Shown here piece after piece: positions 13,621 to 63,163 of a stretch of DNA of 64,000 bases (position 1 is the stretch's first letter; each line of letters starts with the position of its first letter). Under the pieces are notes generated by a model, which was given only the letters and a program-made list of their open reading frames with translations, ran no database searches and was not told the DNA's origin. A program made the translations under genes and the position numbers. Source of the DNA: Chiloscyllium plagiosum (Eukaryota); assembly GCF_004010195.1 (NCBI RefSeq), contig NC_057719.1:44309054-44373053 (forward strand). The letters are read 5' to 3'.

Positions 13621-14542
13621 TTCTTTTATCTCCTTTCACTTCCACAGCAGTACGGAGTTAAAATTGAAGTCATTTTGCCTCATTCAATAAATAAAAGTTG
13701 CAATTTGCTTTTAAACCTATTATTTGTTGTTTTTTAGTAGCTGGCTCTCTTCCCATTCTGACTGTCTGCATACTTTCAGTTACACATTCCTTAATGTCTT
13801 TTTCCCACTTCTTCAGCTCTGAAAAAGCCCATATTTTCAGCGGTATCATTCCTGACACCATGTTTCAACTGGTCACTTGTTAAAGCTCCCACATACTGCA
13901 TACTTACTGCAGAGGTATAAGTTGATTACTACAGCAAACCACCCAGAAAATTTAACATAATTTCATCAGCCACACTGGATATTGTTTTCAAGTTGTAGAA
14001 CTCAATCAAGGGCAAATCCCCATTTACCTGGTTTCTCTTTTTGGTGATGTGGAACTGTTTGCAGTAAGGCTCATCACCACTATTGTCACCCATTGCTATA
14101 TTTTAAACTTCCATACAGTACTAATAGTTACTGGCAGCCCTTTACATTTCTCCCCAAGATTACGCTCATAATATAAGGAGGATCCCTATCCATTTTTACC
14201 TTGAAGCCCCTTCTGATAATAATAAAGAATAATCCCTACTATTTATAACAGGACCTGGTCAAAACAGTGGTCACTGACATTGGTTTTTACCTTGGGATCC
14301 CATTAAAATGATTAAATCTTATTAAAAGAATGGAAGGGAAAAAGGATATGCACTGAGTATCATGTTGGGCTCTTGCTCGTGAGATTAGTCGTGAGAGCTT
14401 TCCCATTTATGTACTGACCCTCTGCCCTGGGCAAAACAACCACGAACCCTCAGTTTTGGGGAAGCTCCTGTTTACAAAGCTTTTGAAGGTTGTTTGTTTA
14501 ACTTCGGGATGCATGTGCCGTAACGTTATGTCCCCAATCTAC

Positions 14543-14794
14543 CTTGGGGTCCTTATCGTAATAGTACTGCTGGGTTCGTATCCAGCGGCCCACCAGATGA
14601 TCACGCACAATGTGTGCTAGCGCCAAATAATAATCCCTCATGGTAGCCACATTACGGTCTTTCACCAGAGTGAAGTGCAGGTGCCGATTAAATCCTAACT
14701 TTAACCCCGGAACATTTTCTAAACCGACCAATCCGCCTAAACCACGAATAGTGATCTGTTTCTTTCGCTCGCTTGCTAAGACTTGTTTTGCCAT
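14543..14794 (-). CDS. PYGL: Glycogen phosphorylase (liver form by synteny), coding exon 1
   Basis: ATG at 14794; [84 protein letters not shown]; 252 nt; phase-0 donor AAG|GTAGAT at the conserved exon-1 boundary. The isoform call rests on adjacency to TRIM9. Confidence 0.9.
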
Positions 14795-14865
14795 GTTGCT
14801 GCTCAGATCACCGGGGGCTCGAGCTCTTTCCGTTTGGCCGTTTTCTTCAAACTGCTTCGCTTGGT

Positions 14866-14921
14866 CCCGCCCCTTTCTGCTGCACCCAATCATTTCAAAG
14901 CACGTTTTGACCTCACCCAAT
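14866..14921 (-). promoter_or_regulatory. Putative TATA-less PYGL promoter: GC box plus two CCAAT boxes
   Basis: CCCGCCCC at 14866-14873; CCAAT at 14886-14890 and 14917-14921 (31-bp spacing); locally CpG-enriched; 70-130 bp upstream of the ATG. Confidence 0.55.
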
Positions 14922-24009: not shown

Positions 24010-24885
24010 ACTGAGGTTCAAGTCAAGAATAAAAAAGAATCATGTATTAGATAAAGACAACTGGGATCATCTGAATCTCTTGAAGAGTATAAAGAGTACA
24101 GGGGCATTTGTAAGAAGGAAATCAAGAAAGCAGAGGGAATATGAGATAGCCTTGGAGATAAGGTTAAAGATATTCCAAAAAGTTTCATCATATACATTAA
24201 GAGCAACAGAGCAATTAGAGAGAGAGTAGGACCCCTTAAAAATAACAAGGTCATCTTTGTACTGAACCTCAGGAGATGGGAGACATATTAAGTGAATATT
24301 TTGTGTCTTTTTTTTACTATTGAGAAAGAAATGGAAGCTAAAGAACTCAGGGAAATAAAAATTGATGTTTTGAAAACAGTTCACATTACAGAAGACGAAG
24401 TGGTGGAAGTCTTAGAAAACAAAGTTGATAAATCTTCAGGATCTGATCAAGTATATCCCAGGACATTGTGGGGAAGTTAGGGAGAAAATTGCGGGGCACC
24501 TGAGCAGAAATACTTGTGTCCTCTATAAACACAGGTGAAGTACTGGAGGGTGGCTAGTGTTGTGCCATTATTTAAGAAAGGCTGTAAGAAGCTTGGAAAC
24601 TATAGACCTGCGAGTCTGACATCAATGGTGGGTAAGTTGTTGGAGGTGAATTTGAAAGATAGGATTTATATGCATTTGGAGAGGCAAGAATTGATTGAGA
24701 AAGTCAGCATGGTTTTATATGAGGAAAATTGTGTCTCACAAACTTGATTGAGTTTTGAAAATAAAGTAAGCAAAGAGATTGATGAGGGAAAAGCAGTAGA
24801 CATTGTTTACTTGGACTTTAGTAAAGCCTGACAAGATTCCACATGGTAGGCTAATTAGTAAAGTTAGATCACATGGGAGTCAGGA
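24010..24885 (+). mobile_element. CR1 ORF2 fragment (RT N-terminus)
   Basis: WRVASVVPLFKKG..GNYRPASLTSMVGKLLE and YLDFSKA motifs. Confidence 0.85.
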
Positions 24886-24904
24886 TTAAGTTGGCTGTCC
24901 CTCC

Positions 24905-25862
24905 CCCGACTACACAGCAGGTACTCGTGTGACATGGCCAACGTTGTCTATCTTATACACTGCAGGCAAGGATGCCCTGGGGCATGGTACATTGGCAAGA
25001 CTAAGCAGACTCTACGACAATGGACACCCAGCAAAATTGCCAGACAGGGATGTTCCGTCCCAGTTGGGGAACACTTCAGCGGGCAGGGATATCTAGCATC
25101 CGTTCTTTGGGTGACCGTCCTGCAAGGTGGACTTTGGGATATGCAGTAAACGCAGAGTAGCCGAGCAGAGGCTGATGCCAAATTTGGTAGCCATGAGTGT
25201 GGCCTTAACCAGGACCTTGCGTTCATGCCACACTACAGGTGGTCCCACTACACTTTACACTCATACACACACACACACTCCTTCATGCTCACACATTCAT
25301 GCAGACCTTCTCTCATACATATAGACCCCACACCTTCTCTCATGCGTATACCCACTCACAGGCTTAGACTCCATTACACTCACACACACTCATGTAGACC
25401 CTCTCTCATGCATATGCTGTCTCTCAGACAAGGGCATATACATCCCACATCCTCTCACAGGCTTATACTCTGTCACAATCATGCGCACACACACTCACAC
25501 ATAAATCGATAGGGTGAATTAGCATTTGCAGAATTGTATTTGCAGATAAATCCTTTGTTTTGAAAAAGCACACACTCCGCAGGCAATCAATCCATGTGAC
25601 ATTTTATAAATTCCTACTTTGGAAATAGAACCAGTCTGACTCAAGATTGGCATACGACAGACTCTAAACTTACATCTTTAATGCATTGTCTGAGCTGAGA
25701 TGTCACCTTTTTATATATAAAACCTTAAGTTATCTCAGGAATGTGGCTTAAAAGAAGTTCTAGAATTTACATATGAATGAATCATTACCTTCAACCCATT
25801 CTAAAAGATGAAAGACTAAACAGCAATCTAGGTTTGCTCAATATAAGGTATCAGTTGCAAGA
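24905..25862 (+). mobile_element. Penelope-like element: GIY-YIG endonuclease relic plus 3' region
   Basis: NVVYLIHCRQGCPGAWYIGKTKQTLRQ, VGEHFS, RRVAEQRL, GLNQDLAFMPHY, then a CA-rich UTR. Lies between CR1 5' and 3' pieces. Confidence 0.85.
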
Positions 25863-38115: not shown

Positions 38116-38287
38116 CAGTCAAAAATCACAGAACACCAGGTTATAGTCCAACGGGTTTAAGACTAAAATCTGATGAAGGAGCAGCGCTCCGAAAGTTAGT
38201 ATTTTCAAATAAACCTGTTCGACTATAACTTGGTGTTGTGAGATTTTTGACCTTGTCCAACCCAGTCCAGCACCGGCACCTCCACAT
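38116..38287 (+). mobile_element. Inverted-repeat mini-element with near-intact hammerhead core, family B
   Basis: CTGATGA (38170-38176)-A-GGAGC agc GCTCC-GAAA-GT-TA; perfect 13-bp TSD CATTATTTGGTCA (38103-38115 / 38288-38300). Confidence 0.85.
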
Positions 38288-38339: not shown

Positions 38340-38630
<291 letters not shown>

Positions 38631-42673: not shown

Positions 42674-43018
<345 letters not shown>

Positions 43019-44240
43019 TCATATAGAATAAGACAAGAGACCTTTTGGTAAATTTGCATACAATCTGACAAAACAAAACAAGAATCTCACACTTCAAAAA
43101 GAAAATAAAAACCACCGAAAGACCAAGATTGAACCGTTCCTTTATGGAGGTAAATTTAGGCCATTTCTTATTACTAGGACGAAAGTGGTATCGCAAGAGC
43201 ACATCAAACCAGTATTATGGTAGTCTTTGTTCTAATTTTCCTAACAAATAATAAAAGCAACCACATAAATATTTTCATTACTTCACACACGTCTGATTTG
43301 GAATCATATTGCCAGTCTTTCATTCTTGAAGTGCAAAAATCCTGGCACTCTTCATAACAGCACTGTCCTTGTACTCACTGGTTTGCAGTGGTTATGGAGG
43401 TGGGAGAGATAGGGCCCAGTCAGACAGAATGACAGGAAGTCATAGGGATGAATAACAGTATGCTCAGGAGAAAAAAAAGAAAAGCTGATAAGGGCAATTA
43501 AAGCAACAAAGGTTGGTCTTGTTACTAACGTCCACATCCCAAAGAAGGTGGCATTCCAACCTGATTTCAAAACCATCAACTCAACAACTTATCTATTAGC
43601 TTTCTGTCCTTGCAATCTACCAGCTACTATCCCCATAGAAAGTTCTTGACCAAATTGTCAAAAATCTACTGTTATGTTCTTATTCTTTTTTGCACCCCCA
43701 ACTTCCTCCACGCAGAGCCCCTATCCCTCCAATCTAGGGTCTATATTTCTGTATCCTGCCACATGTCCAAACATCCTTCATTCTGACTTTCCCAACAGCC
43801 TCTTTCCTGCCTGACCTCTAATGTTTCAATCCCCACACCCTACCCCAGCCTTTCACTTTTCCTAATCCCCATTTAATAATCCTTCTCTTGTCATAACTCC
43901 TTCTGTTCCAAATGAATCTATTGTCACACTCCTGAATTCCAGTTTCCTACAATCTAGTCCACTGATCTGGTAGACGTCCACAGGAAGAATTCCCTGGCTG
44001 GGAAGTGTAGAAATGGGGTTATAAAAAGTATGGGTGCAAGCACCACCCACAATCACCAATAAAATTAATACAACTGTCCCCACTCAGCTCAGCAAGAACT
44101 TACTGGCAAGTTTGAACAAGTCTGTCAGTGAATTACAGACCTCAATATTGGCATCTCAGATCGCCAGAAGCTACAGGCCAATCAGAGTTTCTGGTTCCAA
44201 AAGTCCTCTGGCTGAGGCCTATTCCTCAGAGGATTAAGTT

Positions 44241-44402
44241 GAAAATCACACAACACCAGGTTATAGGTCCAACAGGTTTATTTGGACGAAGGAGCAGCGC
44301 TCCAAAGGCTTGTACTTCCAAAAAACCTGGTGTATTATAACTTGGTGTCATGAGATTTTTAACTTTATCCACCCCAGTCCAACGCGAGCACCTCCACATC
44401 AT
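44241..44402 (+). mobile_element. Family-B inverted-repeat mini-element (truncated hammerhead)
   Basis: Same arms and tail as 38116-38287; GACGA-A-GGAGC agc GCTCC-AAAG-GC-TT. Confidence 0.75.
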
Positions 44403-44404
44403 GG

Positions 44405-44722
44405 CAACCAGTTCTCTATCAATGTCAATACATTACCTCAGATATCATAGCTTTAATTTTCCTTACAAATTTCCTGTGTGGAACCTTGTCAAAAGCCTTT
44501 TGAAAGTCCAGATGCACAACATCTACTGATTCACCATTGTCTACTCTACTGGCCACATCCTCAAAAAAGTCCAGAAGATTTGTCAAGCGTAAAATCCCTT
44601 TAGTGAATCCATGCTGACTAGGACCAATTTTGTCACTGCTTTCCAAATACTTAGTTATTACATCCTTAATGACTGACTCCAGCATTTTCCCCACCACCGA
44701 TGTCAGGTTAACCAGCCTATAT
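44405..44722 (-). mobile_element. CR1 RT fragment
   Basis: YRLVNLTSVVGKMLESVIK..QHGF..LDFQKAFDKVPH. Confidence 0.9.
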
Positions 44723-44805
44723 TGTATCCCATCCCTGGTATGATTCTGAAACAGCTTTATCCAGAACCACAAAGGAGATCCTCTGTAACAAACACAAGAG
44801 GAACG

Positions 44806-44937
44806 CTGAAGAAAAGTCACAATGGACTCAAAACTATTAAGTTTTTTCCTCCACACATGCTGTCAGATCCACTGAGTTTCTCAAGTATTTTCTGAGTTTG
44901 TTTCAGATTTCTAGTATCTGCAGTATTTTGATTTTAT
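44806..44937 (+). mobile_element. Decayed family-C-like hammerhead repeat
   Basis: CTGAAGA-A-AAGTC acaatg GACTC-AAAA, plus an ATGCTGTCAGATCCACTGAG..TCTGCAGTATTTTG tail. Confidence 0.55.
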
Positions 44938-47111
44938 TCAAATCGCATCTTCTGTAGCTGGGATTGTGATGATATTTCCCTTCTTATCACCTCTGCAGCC
45001 TTTGACAAAGTCCACCATTCTATTCCAACATGTGTTCTCTGTTATACAGCTGCTGTCATTTAACTCCATTTTTACAGCCACAGGATTGCTAGCAAAAATA
45101 CATATTCTTATCTCTGCCCAATTTCCTCTATAATACCCCAAACAGTTATCCTTGACATTTTCCTCTTTGTACAAGTTTCTACAAGTTTCCTCTTCACAAA
45201 ATGTGATGAAATAGGGCAAAATGTTTACTGATTGGACCTGCATGGACGTTTCCCTGTATGGTGGAATTTCCAACTCCATTGCAGTGCCAATGATGACTTG
45301 ACAGTCACCTCAGCAGGTAACTATATGACAGGAATGTTAGTGCCAATGAGAATTAGGTATGGTTAGATCAGGGAAGATGATCACAAAGGAACATACTGTC
45401 TTCATTAAAAGACAGCCTTAGCTAAGATAAGTAAACGGAAAAAGAAAATTAAGAGCTCATAAAGCTAAGTTCTCACATTATGCTTAATAGGAAAATATGA
45501 CTAATACTTCACAATACACAGAATTATGATATTTCATGGAGATAATCCTTTACTAAAGACTGCATCAAGATATATACAATGTTTAAACTGAATATCACAA
45601 AATAAATATAATATGTACACTTTATGACCAGAGGTTGTCAAATATTTTACATATTTTCTTTAATTATTGGCTACCTCTTATAATTGACTTAGAATTATGA
45701 AGCAAAAACACCATTTTCTCCAGCAAACTACTTCCTTCAAGAGATTTTTTGGCTCGTCAAAGTGATTTTTGCTTATGACAATGACAAGATGATGAAGGAG
45801 AATATATTATGCTTTGTAAAGGGCAGATCGCATTTCCTTGTTGTAACAATTATAGATGTTATGATTAATTTTGGTGTTTTAGATCAGTATCATTTTGACC
45901 TTCCTTGTATTCTAAAACTGACATAACATGGAATGACAGGCCGTTTCCACAATTAGTATTATAAGTTTCAGCATACATCTCGCACTTGAATTAAATATTT
46001 GTAAAAACATGTGGAACACAAAACAGAAATCTGAAGCCCACAAACTAAAAACATATCAGTTTTGTACAAAAGGTGGCTAATTAGACTAATCCAGGAAATT
46101 GAAATGATACAAAGGCAGTATTTCTAGTGCGAGGGGGTAAAATAAGGCCATGTAATAGAATATAAATTAACTTAAAAATTAGATGTATCTTGAAAATCCC
46201 TAGAGATGTTACATTTCTTAACATGGAGAGAGAGAACAAAAAGTGAAAAGAATCACACATGGAACTCAGAATACCAGGAGTGTGGATGAGAATGGAGGAT
46301 ATTTCTTTCCTCAGCATTGGCATTTCCCCTCAATAAGCAAATTATCTACTTTTATGCGCAATAGAAAGTATAAAGTGCAACAACTTAGATTTTCATTACC
46401 CGTTTAATGTAGTAAAACATTCCAATGTGCTTAACAAGATCATTATCAATAAAAATATTTTTTAACCAAGCCACATGAGAACAAGGAATACTGAATACAT
46501 TTTTATGTATTCTCATTTTTCCTCACCACAAACTCTTACATTTTCCACAGCAAATAAATTAGTTGATCTCCCAATGTTGCTCTGTTTGGAATTAGCTTTT
46601 TTTATTCCCTAAGTACCAATCCATTAACTGTGATTCTCCTAATACCATGTAAATTACCGGTGTGAATCTGAAATCCTACTGATTCACCATAAAACACTAA
46701 TTTGTGTTGCGCTGCTGCATCTGTCTTACAGTTCTATGCTGAGATGCTTCCAGTTAGTTTATGTTTTAGACTCCAAAACAGTTATCTTAAGTTTTATGTC
46801 TCATTAAGCAAGTGACTGATCACAAATGTTATGCCACAAAAGATATGGATATTTAAGACTCACATTTCAGCTTAACAATTTAACATTTTTTTATTTGTTC
46901 ATGGAATGTAGGCTAAGCCAGCATTTATTGCCAATTCCTACTTAGGATTGAGAAAGTGGTGGTGAGCTTTTCCTGAACTGCTGCAGTCTTTGGGATGTGG
47001 GGACACCCTACAATACTGCTCAGAAGGAAGTTTAGGGTTTTGACCCAGTGACAGTGAAGGAACGGCAAGATAGTTCCAAGTCAGCTTGGAACTCAATTGT
47101 TAACAACACAG

Positions 47112-47652
47112 TGAGTTTTGAGAAGATTTATAGCTCAGGTTGAGGTTCTGGATGTAGGTTTGCTCGCTGAGCTGGAAGGTTCAATTTCAGACAATTTGTC
47201 ACCATACTAGGTAACATCATCAGTGCGCCCCCGGATGAAGCACTGTGGTATGGCCCACTTTTTATTTATGTGTTTAGGTTTCCTTGGGTTGGTGATGTCA
47301 TTTCCTGTGGCAACATCATTTCTTGTGGTGACATCATTTCCTGTTCTTTTTCTCAGGAGGCAGTAAATCCTAGGACAAGCCAAACAGAGACACACGCGAG
47401 AATTCCTTAAAACATGGCATTCCAACTGGAACTCTATCAACAAACATAATGACTTTGATCCCATTTACCGACCCTGAGAAAAAGAACAGGAAATGATGTC
47501 ACCACAAGAAATGACGTCACCAACCCAAGGAAACCTAAACACAAATAAAAAGTGGGCCATACCACCGCTGCTTCATCCAGAGGCTCACTGATGATGTTAC
47601 CTAGTATGGTGACAAATCGTCTGAAACCGAACCTTCCAGCTCAGCGAGCAAA
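47112..47652 (+). mobile_element. 5'-truncated Penelope insertion with inverted pseudo-LTRs, family E
   Basis: Arms 47159-47368 and 47463-47652. The spacer encodes ILGQAKQRHTREFLKTWHSNWNSINKHNDFDPIY (GIY-YIG C-terminus). Perfect 13-bp TSD GTTAACAACACAG (47099-47111 / 47653-47665). Confidence 0.9.
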
Positions 47653-48004
47653 GTTAACAACACAGCTAAAATTAGCCAACTTTAACTTAGAATTCTACTA
47701 ACTGAGTGGAATTAAAATAAATATTCACATAACTAAAATAATCATAATCAAATAAAATAATCATGGCATTGATGCTTGACATCACAAGTAGTTCCTTGGG
47801 TTTTAAGTCATATAGATACAAGGGCAAAGGACAACAAGCTGTACATTTTACAACCAGCTATCAGAATAAATTTAGCATCAGGTTTGAAAGATGTTCTGCT
47901 TTAACAGCAAAATCCACCCACTGATTAAATTTATAACAGAACACAATGCTTCTTTACTGATGTGACACCATCTGTAGAAATCTTGCCTGCAGGAAAAGTT
48001 TTAA

Positions 48005-49100
48005 TGAATATATAAAATGGAAAAGGTGGGCTAAAGTGGACGTAGGTTCCTTGCAGGATGAGTAAGGGTAATTAATATTGGCTAATGCTAAAATGGCTGA
48101 GGCCTTGAATAACTATTTTGTATCAGTCTTCACAATGGAAGATGTGTCTAACATGCCAAAGAATGATGTTAAGGATACGATGTGAGGTAAGGACCTCAAT
48201 TCAATTGTTATCACTAAAGGGGTAGTGTTGAGCAAACTTGAGGGGCTAAAGGTAGATAAATCCCCTGGTCCTGATGGAATGCACCCTAGGGTGTCTGTGC
48301 AGAGGACGTGGAGGGTTTGCAGAGAGATTTAGATAGGTTAAGTGAGTGAGCCAGGATCTGGAAGATGGGAGTACAATGTTGATAAATGTGAAGTTCTCTA
48401 CTTTGGAAGGAAAAATAGCAGGTCAGAGTATTATTTAAATGATGAAAGAATGCAGCATTCTGTTGTGCAGAGGGACTTAGGCGTGCTCGTTCATGGATCA
48501 CTAAAAGTTGATTTGCAGGTGAAACAGGTAATCAGGAAGGCAAACAGAACATTGGCTTTCATTGCTGGAGAGATTGAATATAAGAGCAGGGAGATTCTGC
48601 TGTAATTGTACAAGGTGTTGGTGAGGCCGCACCTGAAGTATTGTGCGCTGTTCTGGTCTCCTTACTTGAGGAAGGATATACTGGCTTTGGAGGTGATACA
48701 GAGGTGGTTCACCAGGTTGATTTTGGAGATGAAACATATAAAATTATGAAAGGGATAGGTAAGATAGAGGCAAGCAAGTTATTTCTGCTAGTGGTTGAGA
48801 CTAGGGCTAGGGGACATGGCTTCGAGCTTAAGGGGAGTAGATTTAGGATAGAGATGAGGAGGAAACAGCTTTTCCCAGAGAGTAGTGAATCTACGGAATT
48901 CTCTGCCCAAGGAAGCAGTAGAGGCAGCTTCACTAATATATTTAAGACAGAGTTGGATGGGGTTTTGCATATTAGGGGAATTTCATGTTATGAGGATAAT
49001 GCAGGCAGGATGCGCTGAGGCGATGGAGAGATCAGCCATAATCTTAATGAATTGCGGAGCAGGCTCAACAGGTCAAATAGACTACTCCTGTTTCTATTAC
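48005..49100 (+). mobile_element. CR1 LINE with internal deletions
   Basis: KSPGPDGMHPRV joined directly to LQRDLDRLSE; NVDKCEVLYFG; typical 3' end. Confidence 0.85.
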
Positions 49101-51239
49101 TATGAACAGATGAAATTTGGCAGATTACAAACCTCCCATCAGTACACTGGCTCAGAAAGACAAAGTAAATATTGTTCTTCAGGAATTGAATCCATAGTTA
49201 GTTTCTTTGTATACAGTGTAAAGGAGGCAGTTATTGGCAAGTTATGCAACTAGATTTTAGCTACGAGTTTTGTGGCAACTAAGGATCAACAATTTGCACA
49301 TTGTAGAGCTAAAAGACAAGAAGCCTCCAGAGTTTGTAGTGCTTAAACTGCTGCTCTGTCACAAGCCAATGCTAAAATTAGACATTAAACACAAATACAA
49401 TACAGATTATGAAGTCATGATTTAGTGCAGTCCAATTTCAAATTCAGCTATTTTGAAAAGCTTCTTCCTTCTTCTGTTGAATCATTAAATATTATTTTTT
49501 GCACCCAATGTTAATACCAACCAATTTTACATCAAACAAATTGGAGTAAAACATTCAAATATTGTATGATGAACCTCAAACTAACCTGAGAAAATCATAC
49601 AATTTTAATATTTCTAGTTCCCAATTTCTACCCTGATCAGAGAGAACAGCTAGGTGGTAGACAGTATGTACCAGAATTCAGAAAGACATGCAATACTGTC
49701 ACAAAACATTACACAGGATACTCCCATAGGATTAATGGCAAACAGTTAGGTAAGCCTGAACTGTTATTGGAATATTTCTTTGCTTCCATAATGTTTGTTT
49801 CTTGCATATCTCCAATTTTCATTGCTCCATCTTTCAGGGCCACGCCTTTAGCAGACAATGGTCTAAGCTCTGGAATTTTAAATATGATTTCTCCTCACGT
49901 TTACAGATTTGATAAGAACGATTGTATACATTATAGTGGCATAAAATGTTCTATTGTAACACTGCAGTAAAGGATATTCATTTTTACAATGTTCGAAGTT
50001 AGTTTCTTATGATTTATTTGACCAACAAACTACATTGATTAATTTTCAGATTTACTTACAGGTTGCAAATACATTTACACTTTCTTGACGGTTACATGCC
50101 GAAACACAAAACAAGTAATCAATCTTTCATTTTACTCACTTTTAGAAACAGAAACAGTTGAATTCATGCTTAGTCTCTTGGTGCAGCTACGTAAAAATAT
50201 ACTTAGTAGTTCTTTGTAAGGAACTCATCTAATACATAGCTTTTGTTTTATGAAGCCAATAGTAAAGAATAAATCATAACAACACCTTCATATGCAATAT
50301 ACACCATGACCACAGCTTTTACTTTACATAAGTACTATTCTTGAATAAAATAAGTCTTTTTTCAGAACAGTCTCTATAATCAAACAATGATATGAACTAG
50401 AAAAGTGACGGTAGATTACTGTTCAATAACAACTTAATAGCAACAACAACTGTCCATGCATTTTAAGAGTAATGATATTAAAAATATTTTAAACATCCTC
50501 ATACTACTCTAAAAAATTTAAACAAAAATTATTAAGCAATGAAAACATGTAATGATTTCACAAGTGAACACTGCAGAATGTAATTAAAACCTGCAGTTTC
50601 ACCTTATGATGCCTATTAATAATGTGACATAGTTTTGACAAAAATAAACAGCAAAACCTAAATGTAAAAATCATGAATAGTCTGTCTTCTATATCCTGAA
50701 ATTACTGCTTACCTTCTGGATTTAACGTAAGCATGAGAATCAATGCAAAACTTGAATTATTCTAGTACACGGCAGATAAATTTGGTATCCAAGAAAAGCC
50801 GAAACAAAATGCTATCTTTAAAAAAAAGAGCATAACATGTCAGAAAGTAAATGATATAAAATAAAAGATCCCCTTTTCAGGATATACTTTAGATTGACAG
50901 TGTTTTTCAGGTAATGCATTTATTGAGTGATGCTGCGTATGCCATTTTATATTTGGTCACAACATTACAAGTCAAACACATACAGGCAATAATACTATGG
51001 GATAATGTAAATGCCTAAGCATTTTTGGAAGTCATATGACATAATTTGCACTCCTAAAGCACAGGAGAATCAAAAACAAGGAATGTACAGTATTTTGTTT
51101 GCAATTTGTTCTTGGAATGTGAGTGGCTGGGCAGGTAGCATAGTTTGAAACAGCAAAGATCTAGAGATCAGATAAGGTAGGGATGGCAAATTTTGTGTGT
51201 GTTTGTTTGTTTATTTGTGTACGCACACATAGGGAGGGG

Positions 51240-51948
51240 ATGGTCTAGGGTTTGGTCGTTGGACTCTTAATCCAGAACTCAAGTAATGTTGTGGGTGCCT
51301 GGGTTCAAATCCTGCCATGATAAATGGTGGAATTTGAATTCAATTTTAAAAATCTGAAATTAAGAATTTAGTAATGATCCTGAAACCATTATCGAATGTC
51401 AGGAAAAACCCATCTGGTTCCATTAATGTCCTCTGGGGAAAGAAACTGTCATCTTTACCTGATCTTAACAATACCTTGGTGGCAAGGTGGCTCAATAGTT
51501 AGCACAGCTGCCTCATAGCCAGGGACCCGGGTTCAATTCTACCCTTGGGCGACTATATGGAGTTGCACATTCTCCCATGTCTACGTGGGTTTCCTCCAGG
51601 TGCTCCAGTTTCCTTCTCAGAATCCAAAAATGTGCAGATTGGGTCGTTTGACCATGCTAAATTGCCCATAGTATCTAGGGATGTGCAGGCTAGGTGGATT
51701 AGCCATAGGAAATACAGGGTTACAGGGATTGGGGAGTTGCCTTGTGGGTATCCTTGGAGGGTTGGTGTGGACTCGATGGGTTGGATGGCCTGCTTCCACA
51801 TTGTAGGGATTCTATTTCATGATTCTGCATGTGACTTCAGGACTACAGCAAGGTGGTTGACTCTTAACTACCCTCTGTGCAATTAGGGATGAGCAATTAA
51901 TGCTGGCCTAGCCAGCAAGACCCATATCATGCAAATTAATTTTTAAAA
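51240..51948 (+). mobile_element. tRNA-derived SINE interrupted by an HE1-type SINE (about 51478-51825)
   Basis: Outer B-box GGGTTCAAATCC at about 51301. Inner element GGTGGCTCAATAG..GGGTTCAATTC with a CR1-like tail. The outer element resumes at about 51826. Confidence 0.75.
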
Positions 51949-52174
51949 AGTTGGGTTTACAATCTTGGCTTTTGCTTTCTGACAATGCATGCTGGTCAGT
52001 CCATTTAAACATCCAAATCTCATTATTGTATTGCAATGCAATGCACAATAAATACTGTAGAGCCTACAATGGCTAGTTGTAGCCTTTCTTAGTAAAAGGA
52101 TTTTAATCTAACTTCTATTTTTAGGGTCTGTCATAGTTGTGTTTTAATCACTGGTTGTAGTAACTTGGATACAA

Positions 52175-52259
52175 AAGGGCTTATGTCTGAAACGTCAATT
52201 CTCCTGCTCCTCGGATGCTGCCTGACCTGTTGTGCTTTTCCAGCACCACACTCTCAACT
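52175..52259 (+). mobile_element. Family-A hammerhead repeat, 5'-truncated
   Basis: AGGGC ttat GTCT-GAAA-CG-TC plus the family tail. Confidence 0.75.
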
Positions 52260-52395
52260 ACATAGTGATCTGTTTGCTTCACAACATAGTTTTGTTCTTT
52301 TTGGCATAAAAGTGTTAAAAACCGTCTTATGTAGACTAGCACTCATAGTATCAACATAGTCCATGGCAGAACTTTCCATCTTACTTGGTTTCCAG

Positions 52396-53013
52396 TGTGA
52401 CAATACTATGGCTTTGAGAGGTGTATTTTGTCCTGTTCTTTTTTTTATTATGAAGTTGAGACAGAGATTATGAGTGGTCTGTTCCAAGCTAATAAACAAG
52501 CTTGGGGTTTTAGAAAAAGCTGGAACAATAGAAGCAGCTTGAATAGGTGAAATCAGGTTCCCACAGAACCAAGGTTTTAGTTCAGCTTTTAGAGGATGTT
52601 AGATGTTTTTGGAAGCTCATTGCCAAAGCTGCTACATCTGTCTCTCTTTGCTATAACTAAAAGCTGGAGTTCTGTGTTGCCAGAATTACATGTGAGACAA
52701 TCTCTTTTACTGAATTTGCCTTTGTCAAAAGGGGTGTTTATGGGATGTTACTACATTAGAACAGTTGCTGTTTAGTAGTTAAATAATCTATTATTCTGTT
52801 AAGGTTTCTAATAGAATTAAGATATTCCAAATTCTTCTTTGTTTTGTTTGCATTTTAATTAGAAGGTAAGAATAAACTATGTTTTGCTTAAAGCCACATA
52901 GTGCAATTAATCAAATTACATCTGGATATACAGCACCTTACACTTGCCTTTAAATAAACTAAATATTCGGGCCTAGGCTATCTCTTTGATGTATTTGAGG
53001 GGTGTCCATAACA
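52396..53013 (+). mobile_element. Solo LTR
   Basis: TGT...ACA termini, 618 bp, flanked by 4-bp TSD CCAG (52392-52395 / 53014-53017); internal AATAAA near 52872. Confidence 0.75.
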
Positions 53014-54314
53014 CCAGATGTTGTAAATTAGTTTTTCCTTTTTTATCACGAGGAAAAAAAAAACTAAAATCCATGTGGCAGTACCCTAGAGTAGTTACAC
53101 CATGTGGATATACTTTTGGAAAGCTTTGCATATGCAAAGATTATTTGACAGAATATTTATGAAAGTTGTCTTATTTCATTTCTTACTTCAAGTGTGTATG
53201 CTATTTTCAAGATGACACGAAGATACAGTCCACAAATGTCTCCACTGCCAATTAACTGACCAATGTCAACAAGCATTATTTTACATACAACTTGTGAAAA
53301 CACTTTCTCGAGAGGGGCAGAAGAGAGGCTTATTGGAAGTAAGGAATTGCCAGGCAGGTGAAGACCAAAATTTGCTGGTTTGTTATCTAACATCCTGTAG
53401 TCATAGTGTATAATAATTGGGTCCTGTTGATCAGATCAATCAAAGAATCTGCAGAGGACTTAAACATAAGTTGAGGAAAATCCCCAAGTGGTGGCAAGCT
53501 CTGGGAATCATATGTATAAAGTCATCTCTTTCTCGTATGTACATCATCATCTTGAACTTGAAATCAGTAGTTGTGCATCAAATTTAAAAAAATGTAATAC
53601 TCTACATACACAAGCAACTTAGATTTCTGTATGGACTCTGGAGGCAGGCCTCTCCAGAAAGCTTACTTTAATTTGAAAATTTCAACTTTTTTTGGACAAT
53701 CCATTTTTACATACATAAAATATGTACACAAAAAAACATGCTCCTACAATGATTGAGCTCATCCAATGAGTAGCTAAGCCATACAGACTAAGACACTCAT
53801 TTAAACTGCCACTCTGCAGTCAGCTCACAGCTAGCCAAAACCAGTCAGCCAGTCACCAGAAGCTAACAATCTGCCACGAGCCAAAATGCAGTCAGCCATC
53901 ATACACCACCAGTCAACGAAAGCCATAAATCAGACAGCTTGTAGCCAGCACCAGGAATTACCCAATCATTCTAGAAGCCAGTTAGTCATCTACCAGTAGT
54001 CATTTGCTACGCTACAGCCAGCAGCTAGTTAATCCATGATCAGACTCTTACTATTTTGCCTCAGGCATGGGGAATCACTGGAATTCAAGTGCCCATGTCA
54101 CTGAAGGACTGAGGAAGACTCACAACCAAAGATCTGAGTGCATTGCCAATTCTTGCATTTTATATATTGTCTTTCATAACATCAAGAAGTCCCTAAATAC
54201 TTGACAGTCAATGAAGTACTTTTGAAATTCAGTCAGTTTTAATGTGGAAAAAGCAGAACCACCAAATGCTGCCACATCCATTTTAAGTTCCCATCCAATC
54301 AACACTTTAGCACA

Positions 54315-54483
54315 AACCAAAAGAGAAAATGCTGGAAAATCAAAGCAGCTTTGACAAAGGGTCAGTTAGACTCGAAACGTCAGCTCTTTTCTCTCCTTAC
54401 AGATGCTGCCAGACCTGCTGAGATTTTCCAGCATTTTCTCTTTTGGTTCCAGATTCCAGCATCCGCAGTAATTTGCTTTTATC
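54315..54483 (+). mobile_element. Young inverted-repeat mini-element, family C
   Basis: Perfect 27-bp inverted repeat (54315-54341 / 54422-54448); perfect 15-bp TSD CAACACTTTAGCACA (54300-54314 / 54484-54498). Confidence 0.9.
54347..54385 (+). ncRNA. Minimal type-I hammerhead ribozyme motif, U3:A8 variant
   Basis: AGCU-[UUGACAA]-A-GGGUC aguua GACUC-[GAAA]-CG-[UC]-AGCU. Stems I and II pair; palindromic ACGU replaces stem III. Confidence 0.7.
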
Positions 54484-56819
54484 CAACACTTTAGCACATA
54501 TGAGCAATTTATTTGGTTAGCTTTGTTGTCCTCGTAGTCTAAATGGTTATCACACTTCTGAGAGGTTAATAGCTCTCTAATACTGGCAGTACCATTGGGA
54601 ATGGTCCAGTTCTGGCACTGCAGGGAGCCTGAGCTATAAGATGTCTGGCAGGCACATTGCAGTCAGTCAGTGAAGTCCTATTTATGGTTGGGGAAAAATT
54701 GTTAGTATTACGAACAGATGAGTCTCTTCACCAGTTTGCAGCACTTGCCTCCAAGGTTTTTCTATTAAGCATGGCTACCCTTGTAAGAGAGGGTCACCTC
54801 GTAAAAAGACCACAGGTATACCTGCTGGTTTCTCGCATGATAGTAGCTACATGCATACTGGGAATGGTAGAATGAGGCCCTTATGTGACCATTTATGGAC
54901 CTCAATTGGCTTTTAGGCAGGAAACCAGCCTTGATACTTCTAATTCTGGATTTAATCAGGGGAGTCACCACTCCACAGTTTTGTGCCTGATTAAACATCA
55001 ATTTTTTTGCTAAAGGCTCTAGAATAGGACTCAAAGCCCAGAACCTTCAGACCTCAAAGGGGGTAACAAAAATGCAAATGAAAACCAGGCTTTTCTGATT
55101 TTGCTTCAAAGCCAATCATCTCAGTTTCATTTTATCCGGCTGCGTTTGAAAACCTGTTCCTTGTTTCGGCTGCATTCAAACAGCATAAAATATGACATTT
55201 TAATCTGCTTGTTGCTTTCGCTGTGGTATAGCTTTTGGCCATAAAGTACTTAATTCCAGCACATTTGCATTTAATTCTTTTCATCACCCATTGCTGATGG
55301 TGGTATATGTGTTGAGCTTGGTTATAAATCTGTTGTCATACGTGGTGGGCTGCAGTCCTCTAGGGAAGATGCCTTGATCTGCAGAACAGGGCTAACCTCC
55401 GCAAATCCACCTTCTTCCCATCAATTAGTTGGTCAGGGTTTGCACCTCCATTGTGATTCTGCAGCACAGCTTTGTTTCTCTGAGTGGGGATCCTTTGACT
55501 TTCTTTTTATTGGAATTTTCTCCTTCTTCCCTTCCCTGTCTTGGCAAAGGTATACAAACATTTAAGAATAGTTTTGAAAGCATTTTAAGACAGTATTGTT
55601 TGTGTATGAGTTAGCATGCTACTTTAATTTAAAGGTGATGAAAAGAGCCAGTCTGCTGTTTAAATAAACATTTGGTTGGTTAACCTCAAACATTTATTTG
55701 CTCCCAAGAATACAAATGGAAAACAGATAGAGAACAGATGAAAGTCATAACTTAGACAACAGTCAAGAAAAAATTACTTTGGCAGACACTACTCCAGGAT
55801 AATGGTGTTGTTAACTTGCATTTTGAATGGTATTCTTCAGTTGTTAATATTATTTAGCTATGTTGTTTAGCATGGAATTAAATGCTTAGCAAATCTGGGA
55901 CTGGACTTATGAGTATTTGTTACTCAAATCTTGCTGTTGCAAGACCAATAAAGAAAGTTCAGTTTGGTGCTCACAAAAGGCTAGATGGCCCTATAACTGG
56001 CAGGACCAAAGTTGTGGTTGCAAGTTGGTTCCATAGGTAACAGTACCCATGTTAATTTTATATTGTGAAGCTTCTGTTCATATTGTTCTGAACAGATAAT
56101 TTAAACATCTTTAATTTCTCTAAATTTCAACTGGCGTTTTTGCAGCATGTGCTTTATGCAAATAGGAAACAGTATTATGTTTAGGAATATATATTTCTTC
56201 ATTATATTTAAAAATCTCATCTGCAAGTGCTTACATTTAATATTTTCTTCTCTGCTCCTTTGAGGACATCCTTGGTCCAAATAACAACAATCATTATATT
56301 TCAAAAGTACTTTATCACATTAAACATGGGCAAAATTTTGAACAATGTGTTAAGACAATTAATAAATGCAAGATGTGTATGCTTATGGATATTCATGAAC
56401 ATACTTAAAAAGAATTAGCTAGCTATTTAATTGCAAGGGCAATCTATAAAATCAAATTTTTCCTTACTTGATATCCACATGACTAGTTTCCAGTAAGGAT
56501 CATAAAACTGCAATTAAGAATAGAAATCCTGACTCAATTTCCTACTTCTTACTATTTCTTAATTGGAATACATTAAGAGTAACTGCACCATCCTTACTGC
56601 TGACCTGGCTGCAGCCAACTGAGTCAGCACGGATCACAGTCAAGCTTGAAACCCTTCAGCACAGTAACACCACTGAACTATCAGGAGTATTCCCACAGAA
56701 ACAACTTTCTCAATGCATTGTTAATTAAGATTATATTAACTCCATTCTCATCTTAGTTCTGATCACAAAAATGAGCAATCATTCCTGCATTTGAAAACTC
56801 GGCTAAAGATATTTTTAAT

Positions 56820-56908
56820 CATCCTATTCAGCCACACCTCTGGAGCAGGTGGGACTTGAACCCAGGAGTGTTGGCTCAGAGGTAGGGACATTACCACTGC
56901 TCCATAAA
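56820..56908 (-). mobile_element. tRNA-derived SINE head
   Basis: Minus strand reads TGGAGCAGTGG (A-box-like) and GGGTTCAAGTCCC (B box). Confidence 0.65.
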
Positions 56909-57768
56909 AGCTTTAAAACTTGGCTTATATGCTAACTACATAACATTTGATACATTTATTCTTAATGAGTCACAAGATGGCTTACAACATTTCTAGCTAC
57001 CTGCACAGTTTGGTCATAGAAAGCCTGCAAACAAAATGCTTAGTATAATCTAACAAGTTATTAACAAAGGAATGAAACACACAATTCAGGATCGCTATGC
57101 ACTTGCAAGCTCCAAAACAGTACAATCTTGGAATTATACAATATTTTATTTTTCTACTCCACTACACGTTTGGTTAACAATATTCCTATGTCCTTTTCAC
57201 ATTTAATACCTGCAATTACAATTCAACAGCAGACAAACAAACAAATAAGCAGTGACCAGGCCACTGAAGCAAGACATTTAGAATAGTGACTAACTTACAC
57301 TGATTGTATGGACAGGTGGTATCTGCAAAATACAACAGGGATTTCTTTAGAAAAAAGTCTTCCAACGCTTAGCAAATCAAATGCACGAGACTAATACATT
57401 TAGCTTTACAGAGAGTTTAAGAAAAGATGTTGTAATGTTAAGTGTCCGTAGCATAAAATACATAATGCAACTGGTTTCATTACACAGTTTAACTTTAAAA
57501 ATATTTAACATTTGCAAATACAATCAAACCTACAGGCTAACATTCCTTAAGTACAAGGCATTAACTTTCTAAAACTTTACAAAGCTTTCTATACAATCCA
57601 TGAATACCTGGGAAACTGTATATGATAATTTATCACAACCTATATTTTGCAAAGATGTGCAGTTTAATAATTTTATACATTAATATTTGACTTTATAAAA
57701 CACAGCTTCCTATTTATTTTAGAGTGCATGTGTCTACGAATAAAAACATAATGTTTAAGGTATTCTTA

Positions 57769-57954
<186 letters not shown>

Positions 57955-62941: not shown

Positions 62942-63163
<222 letters not shown>

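Follow-up and report, generated by a model that had tools for sequence, protein, structure and literature searches.

The question raised by this locus is whether a hammerhead core reading UUGACAA, with a U3:A8 pair in place of C3:G8, is a damaged copy or a variant kept by the retroelement that carries it. We looked at this core in a 64,000-nucleotide stretch of Chiloscyllium plagiosum DNA (contig NC_057719.1), hereafter called the window. Read directly, the plus strand holds a minimal type I hammerhead motif of 39 bases at 54347-54385 (Table 1). A previous sequence-only reading had described U3 and A8 in the core, stem I as AGCU/AGCU, GAAA, the ACGU palindrome and GUC; all are present, together with an unpaired A at 54358 that was absent from its description. 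Helix I is short, being limited to the 4-bp stem I, helix III is absent, G10.1-C11.1 is formed by G 54359 with C 54373, and cleavage is predicted from the sequence to occur after 54381 (C17). The window gave no match at the Rfam gathering threshold, hence the motif is not a canonical hammerhead as judged by helix III and score. Of the features given for Penelope minimal hammerheads in PMC4209133, the sequence shows a Watson-Crick 3-8 pair with the other core bases intact, an extra base between 9 and 10.1, G10.1-C11.1 and a palindrome at 15.1-16.1. The motif is real and above chance, since a 30-nt genome pattern leaving positions 7 and 8 free returned at least 1,178 exact matches and the reversed pattern, used as a control, returned 0.

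Table 1. Positions in the window of the insertion, its hammerhead motif and the surrounding TRIM9 exons
Feature	Position	Strand	Remark
TRIM9 exon	38340-38630	-	part of the minus-strand exon set
TRIM9 exon, PRY-SPRY	42674-43018	-	E 5e-63 (TRIM67 3e-55)
TRIM9 intronic stretch holding the insertion, approximate bounds	43019-57768	-	between FN3 and PRY-SPRY exon-bearing frames
Target-site duplication, left, 15 nt	54300-54314	+	100% identical to right copy
Inverted arm, reverse complement of element +76 to +102	54315-54341	-	begins at the upstream of the two priming sites
Inverted-arm end, reverse complement of element +2 to +6, joined head to head	54342-54346	-	from comparison with full arms
Hammerhead stem I, 5' strand AGCU	54347-54350	+	first base is the family 5' end and the inferred transcription start
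Core positions 3-9, UUGACAA	54351-54357	+	U3 at 54351, A8 at 54356
Unpaired A between position 9 and stem II	54358	+	from sequence; typical of Penelope minimal hammerheads as described in PMC4209133
Stem II and 5-nt loop	54359-54373	+	5 bp, one G.U; strands 54359-54363 / 54369-54373; G10.1-C11.1
GAAA (54374-54377), palindromic ACGU (54377-54380) replacing helix III, GUC triplet	54374-54381	+	from sequence
Stem I, 3' strand AGCU	54382-54385	+	from sequence and covariation alignment
Remainder of element 5' leader, to +137	54386-54483	+	ends at the downstream priming site, the Penelope 'tail'
Target-site duplication, right	54484-54498	+	100% identical to left copy
TRIM9 exon, FN3	57769-57954	-	E 6e-26
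TRIM9 exon, FN3	62942-63163	-	E 2e-26

The motif sits in an insert (54315-54483) flanked by identical 15-nt target-site duplications. Its perfect inverted repeat is 27 bp long (54315-54341 / 54422-54448), and compared with the full arms of loci L004, L010, L012 and L019, element positions +7 to +75 are missing from the inverted arm. Two priming sites lie at +97 to +106 and +133 to +137. Judged from these junctions, the inverted arm is likely a second cDNA that was attached head to head and lost an internal part. The perfect target-site duplication and inverted repeat reported earlier are both there, but the repeat is the usual inverted 5' piece of Penelope elements, a by-product of integration. 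Since TRIM9 exons flank the motif on the minus strand, the hammerhead is intronic and, as had been claimed, antisense to TRIM9. Downstream of TRIM9, we also found the first coding exon of a glycogen phosphorylase (14501-14920, minus strand; best match to the liver form, E 1e-33); PYGL adjoining TRIM9 is the human gene order. The leader holds an ORF of about 22 codons (54403-54471), starting 21 nt past the predicted cut and closing before the long ORF, and two acceptor-like pyrimidine-AG sites; as read from the sequence, these features are compatible with a possible upstream ORF or 5' intron.

Longer copies showed what kind of element the insert comes from. In these, a pseudo-LTR of about 410 nt with a TATA box and a pyrimidine run lies upstream of the hammerhead and is preceded by an ORF ending in GIY-YIG (loci L054, L094, L134 and L142 are examples of the motif lying in the pseudo-LTR of an RT/GIY-YIG element), while in other copies hammerhead and leader continue into the ORF. 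The parent unit thus runs from hammerhead to leader, to an ORF with RT and GIY-YIG, to the pseudo-LTR ending in its TATA box and to the next hammerhead. In the parent ORF, Pfam detected RVT_1 (E 1e-4) and GIY-YIG (E 8e-4), both under the cut-off, an atlas assigned the ORF to GIY-YIG clusters (0.97), and a PDB sequence search with the RT piece gave no match. A DKG motif is visible in the parent translations, and a CX4CX2C linker in those of loci L061, L074 and L079. As described in PMC8557442, a CX2-5CxxC linker between RT and EN defines Neptune/Nematis, and Penelope/Poseidon elements are without it. These motifs point to a parent of Neptune/Nematis type rather than Poseidon, and a Poseidon label is rejected because the linker is present. 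The features of EN+ Penelope-like elements were found: an RT followed by a C-terminal GIY-YIG, DKG, a tail of 30-40 nt and an inverted 5' piece. Copies have two preferred 3' ends, near +100 and near +136, with about 35 nt between them; PMC11167929 ties the Penelope tail to two internal priming sites. Complete inverted arms occur in other copies, and head-to-head joins are common. A non-LTR retrozyme, made of non-coding tandem units, does not fit, as the copies are dispersed, carry target-site duplications and derive from a coding element.

We then asked how widely U3:A8 is distributed in the family. All 100 of the matches listed from the 1,178 have A8, and position 3 is U in 24 of 30 loci checked among the listed matches; of the other six, three belong to the flank or the junction where a copy is truncated, three are point changes, and C3 with G8 occurs in none. 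A second sample was independent of the core, its loci (L061-L225) having been found by the upstream pseudo-LTR, by the ORF or arbitrarily. A filter of 86% identity and 86 nt left 102 copies, and among the 87 spanning positions 3 and 8, the pair was U:A in 84, A:A in two, U:C in one and C:G in none. UUGACAA is thus fixed in the subfamily, which was the check proposed by the sequence-only reading, and the case that it had set against itself, relatives reading CUGACGA, fails. For the same reason, a private double mutation or CpG decay in the window copy is ruled out. Arbitrarily chosen DNA totalling 600 kb contained five family arms, at three places, which suggests a rough copy number of about 10^4. 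Divergence within the family was 1.7% in the core, 2.7% at other non-CpG sites and 20% at CpG, meaning that copies decay about neutrally after insertion and that any selection acted on the masters.

Over 137 positions, the window copy shows a single departure from the column majority, a change common to 6 of 68 copies. With a mean divergence from that majority of 3.4% in the family, it is among the least diverged copies (6 of 102 are at 0.8% or below). The same insertion was detected in DNA contigs of two other organisms, in run X13 (organism D) and run X16 (organism A), where contigs continue from each unique flank through 25-26 nt of the insert; run X14 is nearly identical to the window, hence not independent. 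The flanks differ at 37 of 883 letters in X13 and 16 of 882 in X16, a divergence of about 2-4%, and no flank-to-flank joint was found among the X13 and X16 junctions listed. Being common to other organisms, the insertion predates those splits. This does not support the earlier view of a recent insertion, and the hammerhead is young relative to older families only, not in absolute terms.

Other hammerhead families of the same genome carry C3:G8. A descriptor scan over 1.3 Mb gave 232 matches, against 12 in a reversed control, with C3:G8 in 51 of 57 members of family C and 16 of 19 of family D. In the closest sister, family B, the pair was C:G in 28 of 30 copies, the query having included the family B core. 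We found no intermediate family with U:G or C:A. Nine copies of families A (the U3:A8 family), B and C, giving six distinct rows, were aligned (family D was misaligned and excluded). In this alignment, 91% of cells pair, compared with at most 45% in slid controls, and 5 of 10 pairs, 3-8 included, change on both sides. Outside the loop, A and B differ only by changes that compensate each other or fall at tolerated positions (a stem I pair, a stem II G.U for G-C, N7 and H17). The bases that do not vary across the four families coincide exactly with the catalytic ones, and no family majority has a G at H17. Downstream divergence between A and B is 18-24%, a figure inflated by copy decay; at 19%, the chance of no change at 11 core positions is about 10% for A versus B alone, so that this comparison makes a weak case for selection by itself and the four families together a stronger one. 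That the sister families retain C3:G8 while their stems covary makes it likely that the fold was under selection in master elements, which fits the earlier proposal of selection in the master element.

The window holds further relatives. Three family D motifs are of the C3:G8 type, with triplet CUA or decayed: two form a head-to-head pair at about 9832 (minus) and 9849 (plus), of which one has decayed to U3:G8; the third, at 38170 (plus), is antisense just past the last coding exon of TRIM9. Older decayed leader relatives of family B/C types, partial and with 76-90% identity, lie at 1845, 20029, 44844 and 52189, and the translation of 24868-25232, as judged by eye, shows the remains of a GIY-YIG-like ORF from another Penelope family.

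Where the copies begin tells which RNA was inserted. For this, we took 77 arms from loci not selected on the ribozyme, set aside five with native upstream sequence and counted 72. In 49 of them, the 5' end lies at +1 to +3. There was no excess at the cut site, as two of the 72 start at +35 to +38 and 1.5 were expected. Copies of family B likewise begin at stem I, and the modal distance of the TATA box is 31 nt upstream of stem I (25 of 52 matches, duplicates included). Of 25 ORF-anchored loci, 13 have a piece of the ORF fused to +1, often via extra bases, as expected of a polymerase running off the RNA 5' end and then jumping. As copies start at stem I and show no cut-site excess, the inserted templates would have been uncleaved. 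Going by these ends, transcription likely begins at stem I and the RNA is copied without prior cleavage, in line with in vitro results on the anole element. Uncut insertion templates do not show that the ribozyme is inactive, since cut RNA could be degraded or circularised. Both possible RNA 5' ends, the start and the cut site, open with the same four bases. Splicing was rejected as the source of the +1 boundary, which follows a pyrimidine run and AG: solo copies begin there after unrelated flanks, and ORF-to-+1 junctions have no common donor and often carry extra bases. The raw RNA run X19 gave 89 reads with no pile of ends, these being 3'-type single-cell data and too few for starts or cuts, and run X20 gave 0 reads. 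Of the 13 junctions that join the ORF to +1, six (L135, L139, L143, L145, L147 and L153) lie within about 35 nt of the ORF, where template jumps may have a preferred landing site or an RNA 3' end to start from. Arms starting at +36 and +38 were seen in two loci only, L155 (near 847 in the oriented sequence) and L177; these arms may derive from RNA that had been cut, or may have been truncated by chance at the four-base palindrome that occurs twice.

Folding was predicted with ViennaRNA, which has no model of the 3-8 tertiary pair. The gap between the native ensemble and the hammerhead 2D fold was 2.3, 2.8 and 2.3 kcal/mol for 39, 64 and 137 nt, and 5.5, 6.0 and 5.8 kcal/mol with C3:G8, about 3.3 kcal/mol worse, because with C3:G8 the bases at positions 3-8 form a 6-bp helix with the cleavage strand. 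Among 32 combinations at positions 3, 7, 8 and 17, C3/G8/C7/C17 was the worst at 39 and 137 nt, not at 64. In family B copies, U3:A8 also lowers the gap, so the gain is partly generic and due to the loss of a G-C pair; C7 may have arrived after the 3-8 swap rather than driving it. According to these models, U3:A8 may relieve a misfold that a C3:G8 core would make in the family context. The swapped dimer scored -15.1 kcal/mol versus -21.6 for an alternative co-fold. In the window's own context, the gap is 7.2 kcal/mol and the stem I probability 0.0, so this copy is predicted to be inert. A bolder proposal, which we put forward tentatively and find somewhat doubtful, is that U3:A8 would be a natural rescue from self-inhibition, giving in the context of C7, C17 and stem I a better ribozyme than C3:G8. 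Because the hammerhead begins at the first transcribed base, the motif would moreover act as a self-decapping switch sorting uncut RNA, for translation and insertion, from cut RNA, for decay or circles, and not as a monomer-releasing scissor.

Altogether, the most probable account is that a Penelope-like retroelement carries these 39 bases at its 5' end as a minimal type I hammerhead motif, with U3:A8 in the whole subfamily. Selection in masters for weak self-cleavage, assisted by a dimer or a protein, has likely maintained this pair, and the solo antisense copy is predicted to be inert. The pseudo-LTR promoter would, as far as DNA tells, start the RNA at stem I, and the element protein would prime cDNA synthesis about 100 or 137 nt downstream, using RNA that has not been cleaved. 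Reverse transcription running off the RNA 5' end would leave short solo copies, and two cDNAs joined head to head would give the window insertion. A fraction of transcripts would be cut after C17 when ACGU pairs with a second copy or a protein aids folding; this cut would remove a 35-nt capped piece, and the cut RNA would either not be inserted or first be ligated into circles. U3:A8 would keep the 3-8 pair while weakening the decoy helix between core and cleavage strand that C3:G8 completes.

The ribozyme could instead be dead in the subfamily, a CpG-type G8 to A change after C7 and a C3 to U change having been fixed by drift in a successful master and being compensatory by luck. Such a course would sit well with insertions derived from uncleaved RNA, with insertion in vitro that does not need cleavage (PMC11167929), with Naiad and most Chlamys elements that thrive without hammerheads as described in PMC8557442, and with CpG sites decaying by 20% against 2.7% elsewhere. 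We hold it unlikely, as all remaining differences from family B outside the loop either compensate one another or lie where change is tolerated, the master retained two decay-prone CpGs, at C11.1-G12 and in the palindrome, and the same double swap arose independently in Schistosoma elements. The exact match of the bases invariant over four families to the catalytic ones, with H17 never G in family majorities, speaks likewise against a fold kept for some non-catalytic job at the 5' end, such as protein binding, a promoter or leader role, or self-complementary cDNA ends aiding joins. The inferred transcription start at the first base of the motif would suit such a job, and so would the self-complementary first bases of the family, where U3:A8 extends a near-palindrome over +3 to +13, and the frequent head-to-head joins; the authors of PMC4209133 leave room for other functions. 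C3:G8 families, however, also insert head to head, and we give this account a low probability.

That the window copy itself has been kept for cutting an antisense transcript of the TRIM9 locus is highly improbable. It is nearly unmutated (1 of 137) and common to other organisms, but with about 2% divergence per lineage, one change or none over 137 nt is no surprise. Moreover, it is a lone minimal motif with neither partner nor promoter, its stem I is predicted to be unformed, and, in 2% of one RNA run, the depth over 53900-54900 lay entirely off the unique flanks.

Self-cleavage in the masters, the reading that we prefer, is close to published systems. The 3-8 pair has been confirmed (PMC3884650), and natural U3/A8 hammerheads were reported by Perreault et al. 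2011 (PMC3088659), who cite in vitro U3/A8 activity in other hammerheads. The 3-8 covariation is the same as here, but theirs are full hammerheads, whereas our motif is without helix III and loop I-II contacts. A close likeness is to the Cercyon elements of Schistosoma mansoni (Cervera and De la Pena 2014, PMC4209133), described with about 1,300 U3-A8 hits, the same type I minimal motif, pseudo-LTR and U3-A8 core, the same extra base before stem II, G10.1-C11.1, a palindrome for helix III and mostly solo copies. There, a single minimal motif was inactive as a monomer and dimers were weakly active. The sequence-only reading had mentioned neither this monomer inactivity nor the parent element, nor the predicted failure of stem I to form in the window copy. 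Host and element differ, stem II has 5 bp here against 7-8 in Cercyon, and here a homogeneous family (3.4%) stands beside C3:G8 sisters. Natural U3:A8 variants thus exist, as had been stated, but their rarity was overstated, since they are described for Penelope hammerheads in that paper, the only one that our search for U3-A8 by name found. The vertebrate rows examined in its supplement (pufferfish, cichlid, lamprey and coelacanth) are all C3-G8, and the words shark, Callorhinchus and milii were not found in the supplement PDF. A literature search for a U3:A8 Penelope hammerhead in cartilaginous fish returned nothing relevant, which does not establish absence from print, and one cartilaginous fish is sampled in bioRxiv 10.64898/2026.07.22.740005.

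With Poseidon of Anolis carolinensis (Frangieh et al. 2024, PMC11167929), the family shares two priming sites, a 30-40 nt tail, an uncut RNA substrate and the lack of RNA ends at the cut site; the anole hammerhead is described as protein-assisted, with uncut RNA as the insertion substrate. Poseidon differs in its C3:G8 core, in an ORF starting inside stem II (here, the first ATG is 21 nt past the cut) and in being without the CX4CX2C linker of our parent (PMC8557442). With the Neptune/Nematis EN+ elements of PMC8557442, the parent has in common RT and C-terminal GIY-YIG, DKG, the CX2-5CxxC linker, partial tandems, inverted 5'-truncated copies and the tail, a likeness drawn from motifs. The hammerhead role in Penelope-like elements is called unclear in the same paper.

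These results indicate that the finding is of a known kind, a clean vertebrate example of the published U3-A8 variant. A U3:A8 family and closely related C3:G8 families in one genome, with mappable 5' ends, form a natural experiment. The start at stem I and the lack of cut-site copies give genome-scale support for the uncut RNA substrate seen in vitro, and with the predicted decoy helix, epistasis between the 3-8 pair and the bases next to it could be tested cheaply. What deserves testing is this prediction, together with the 5'-end result.
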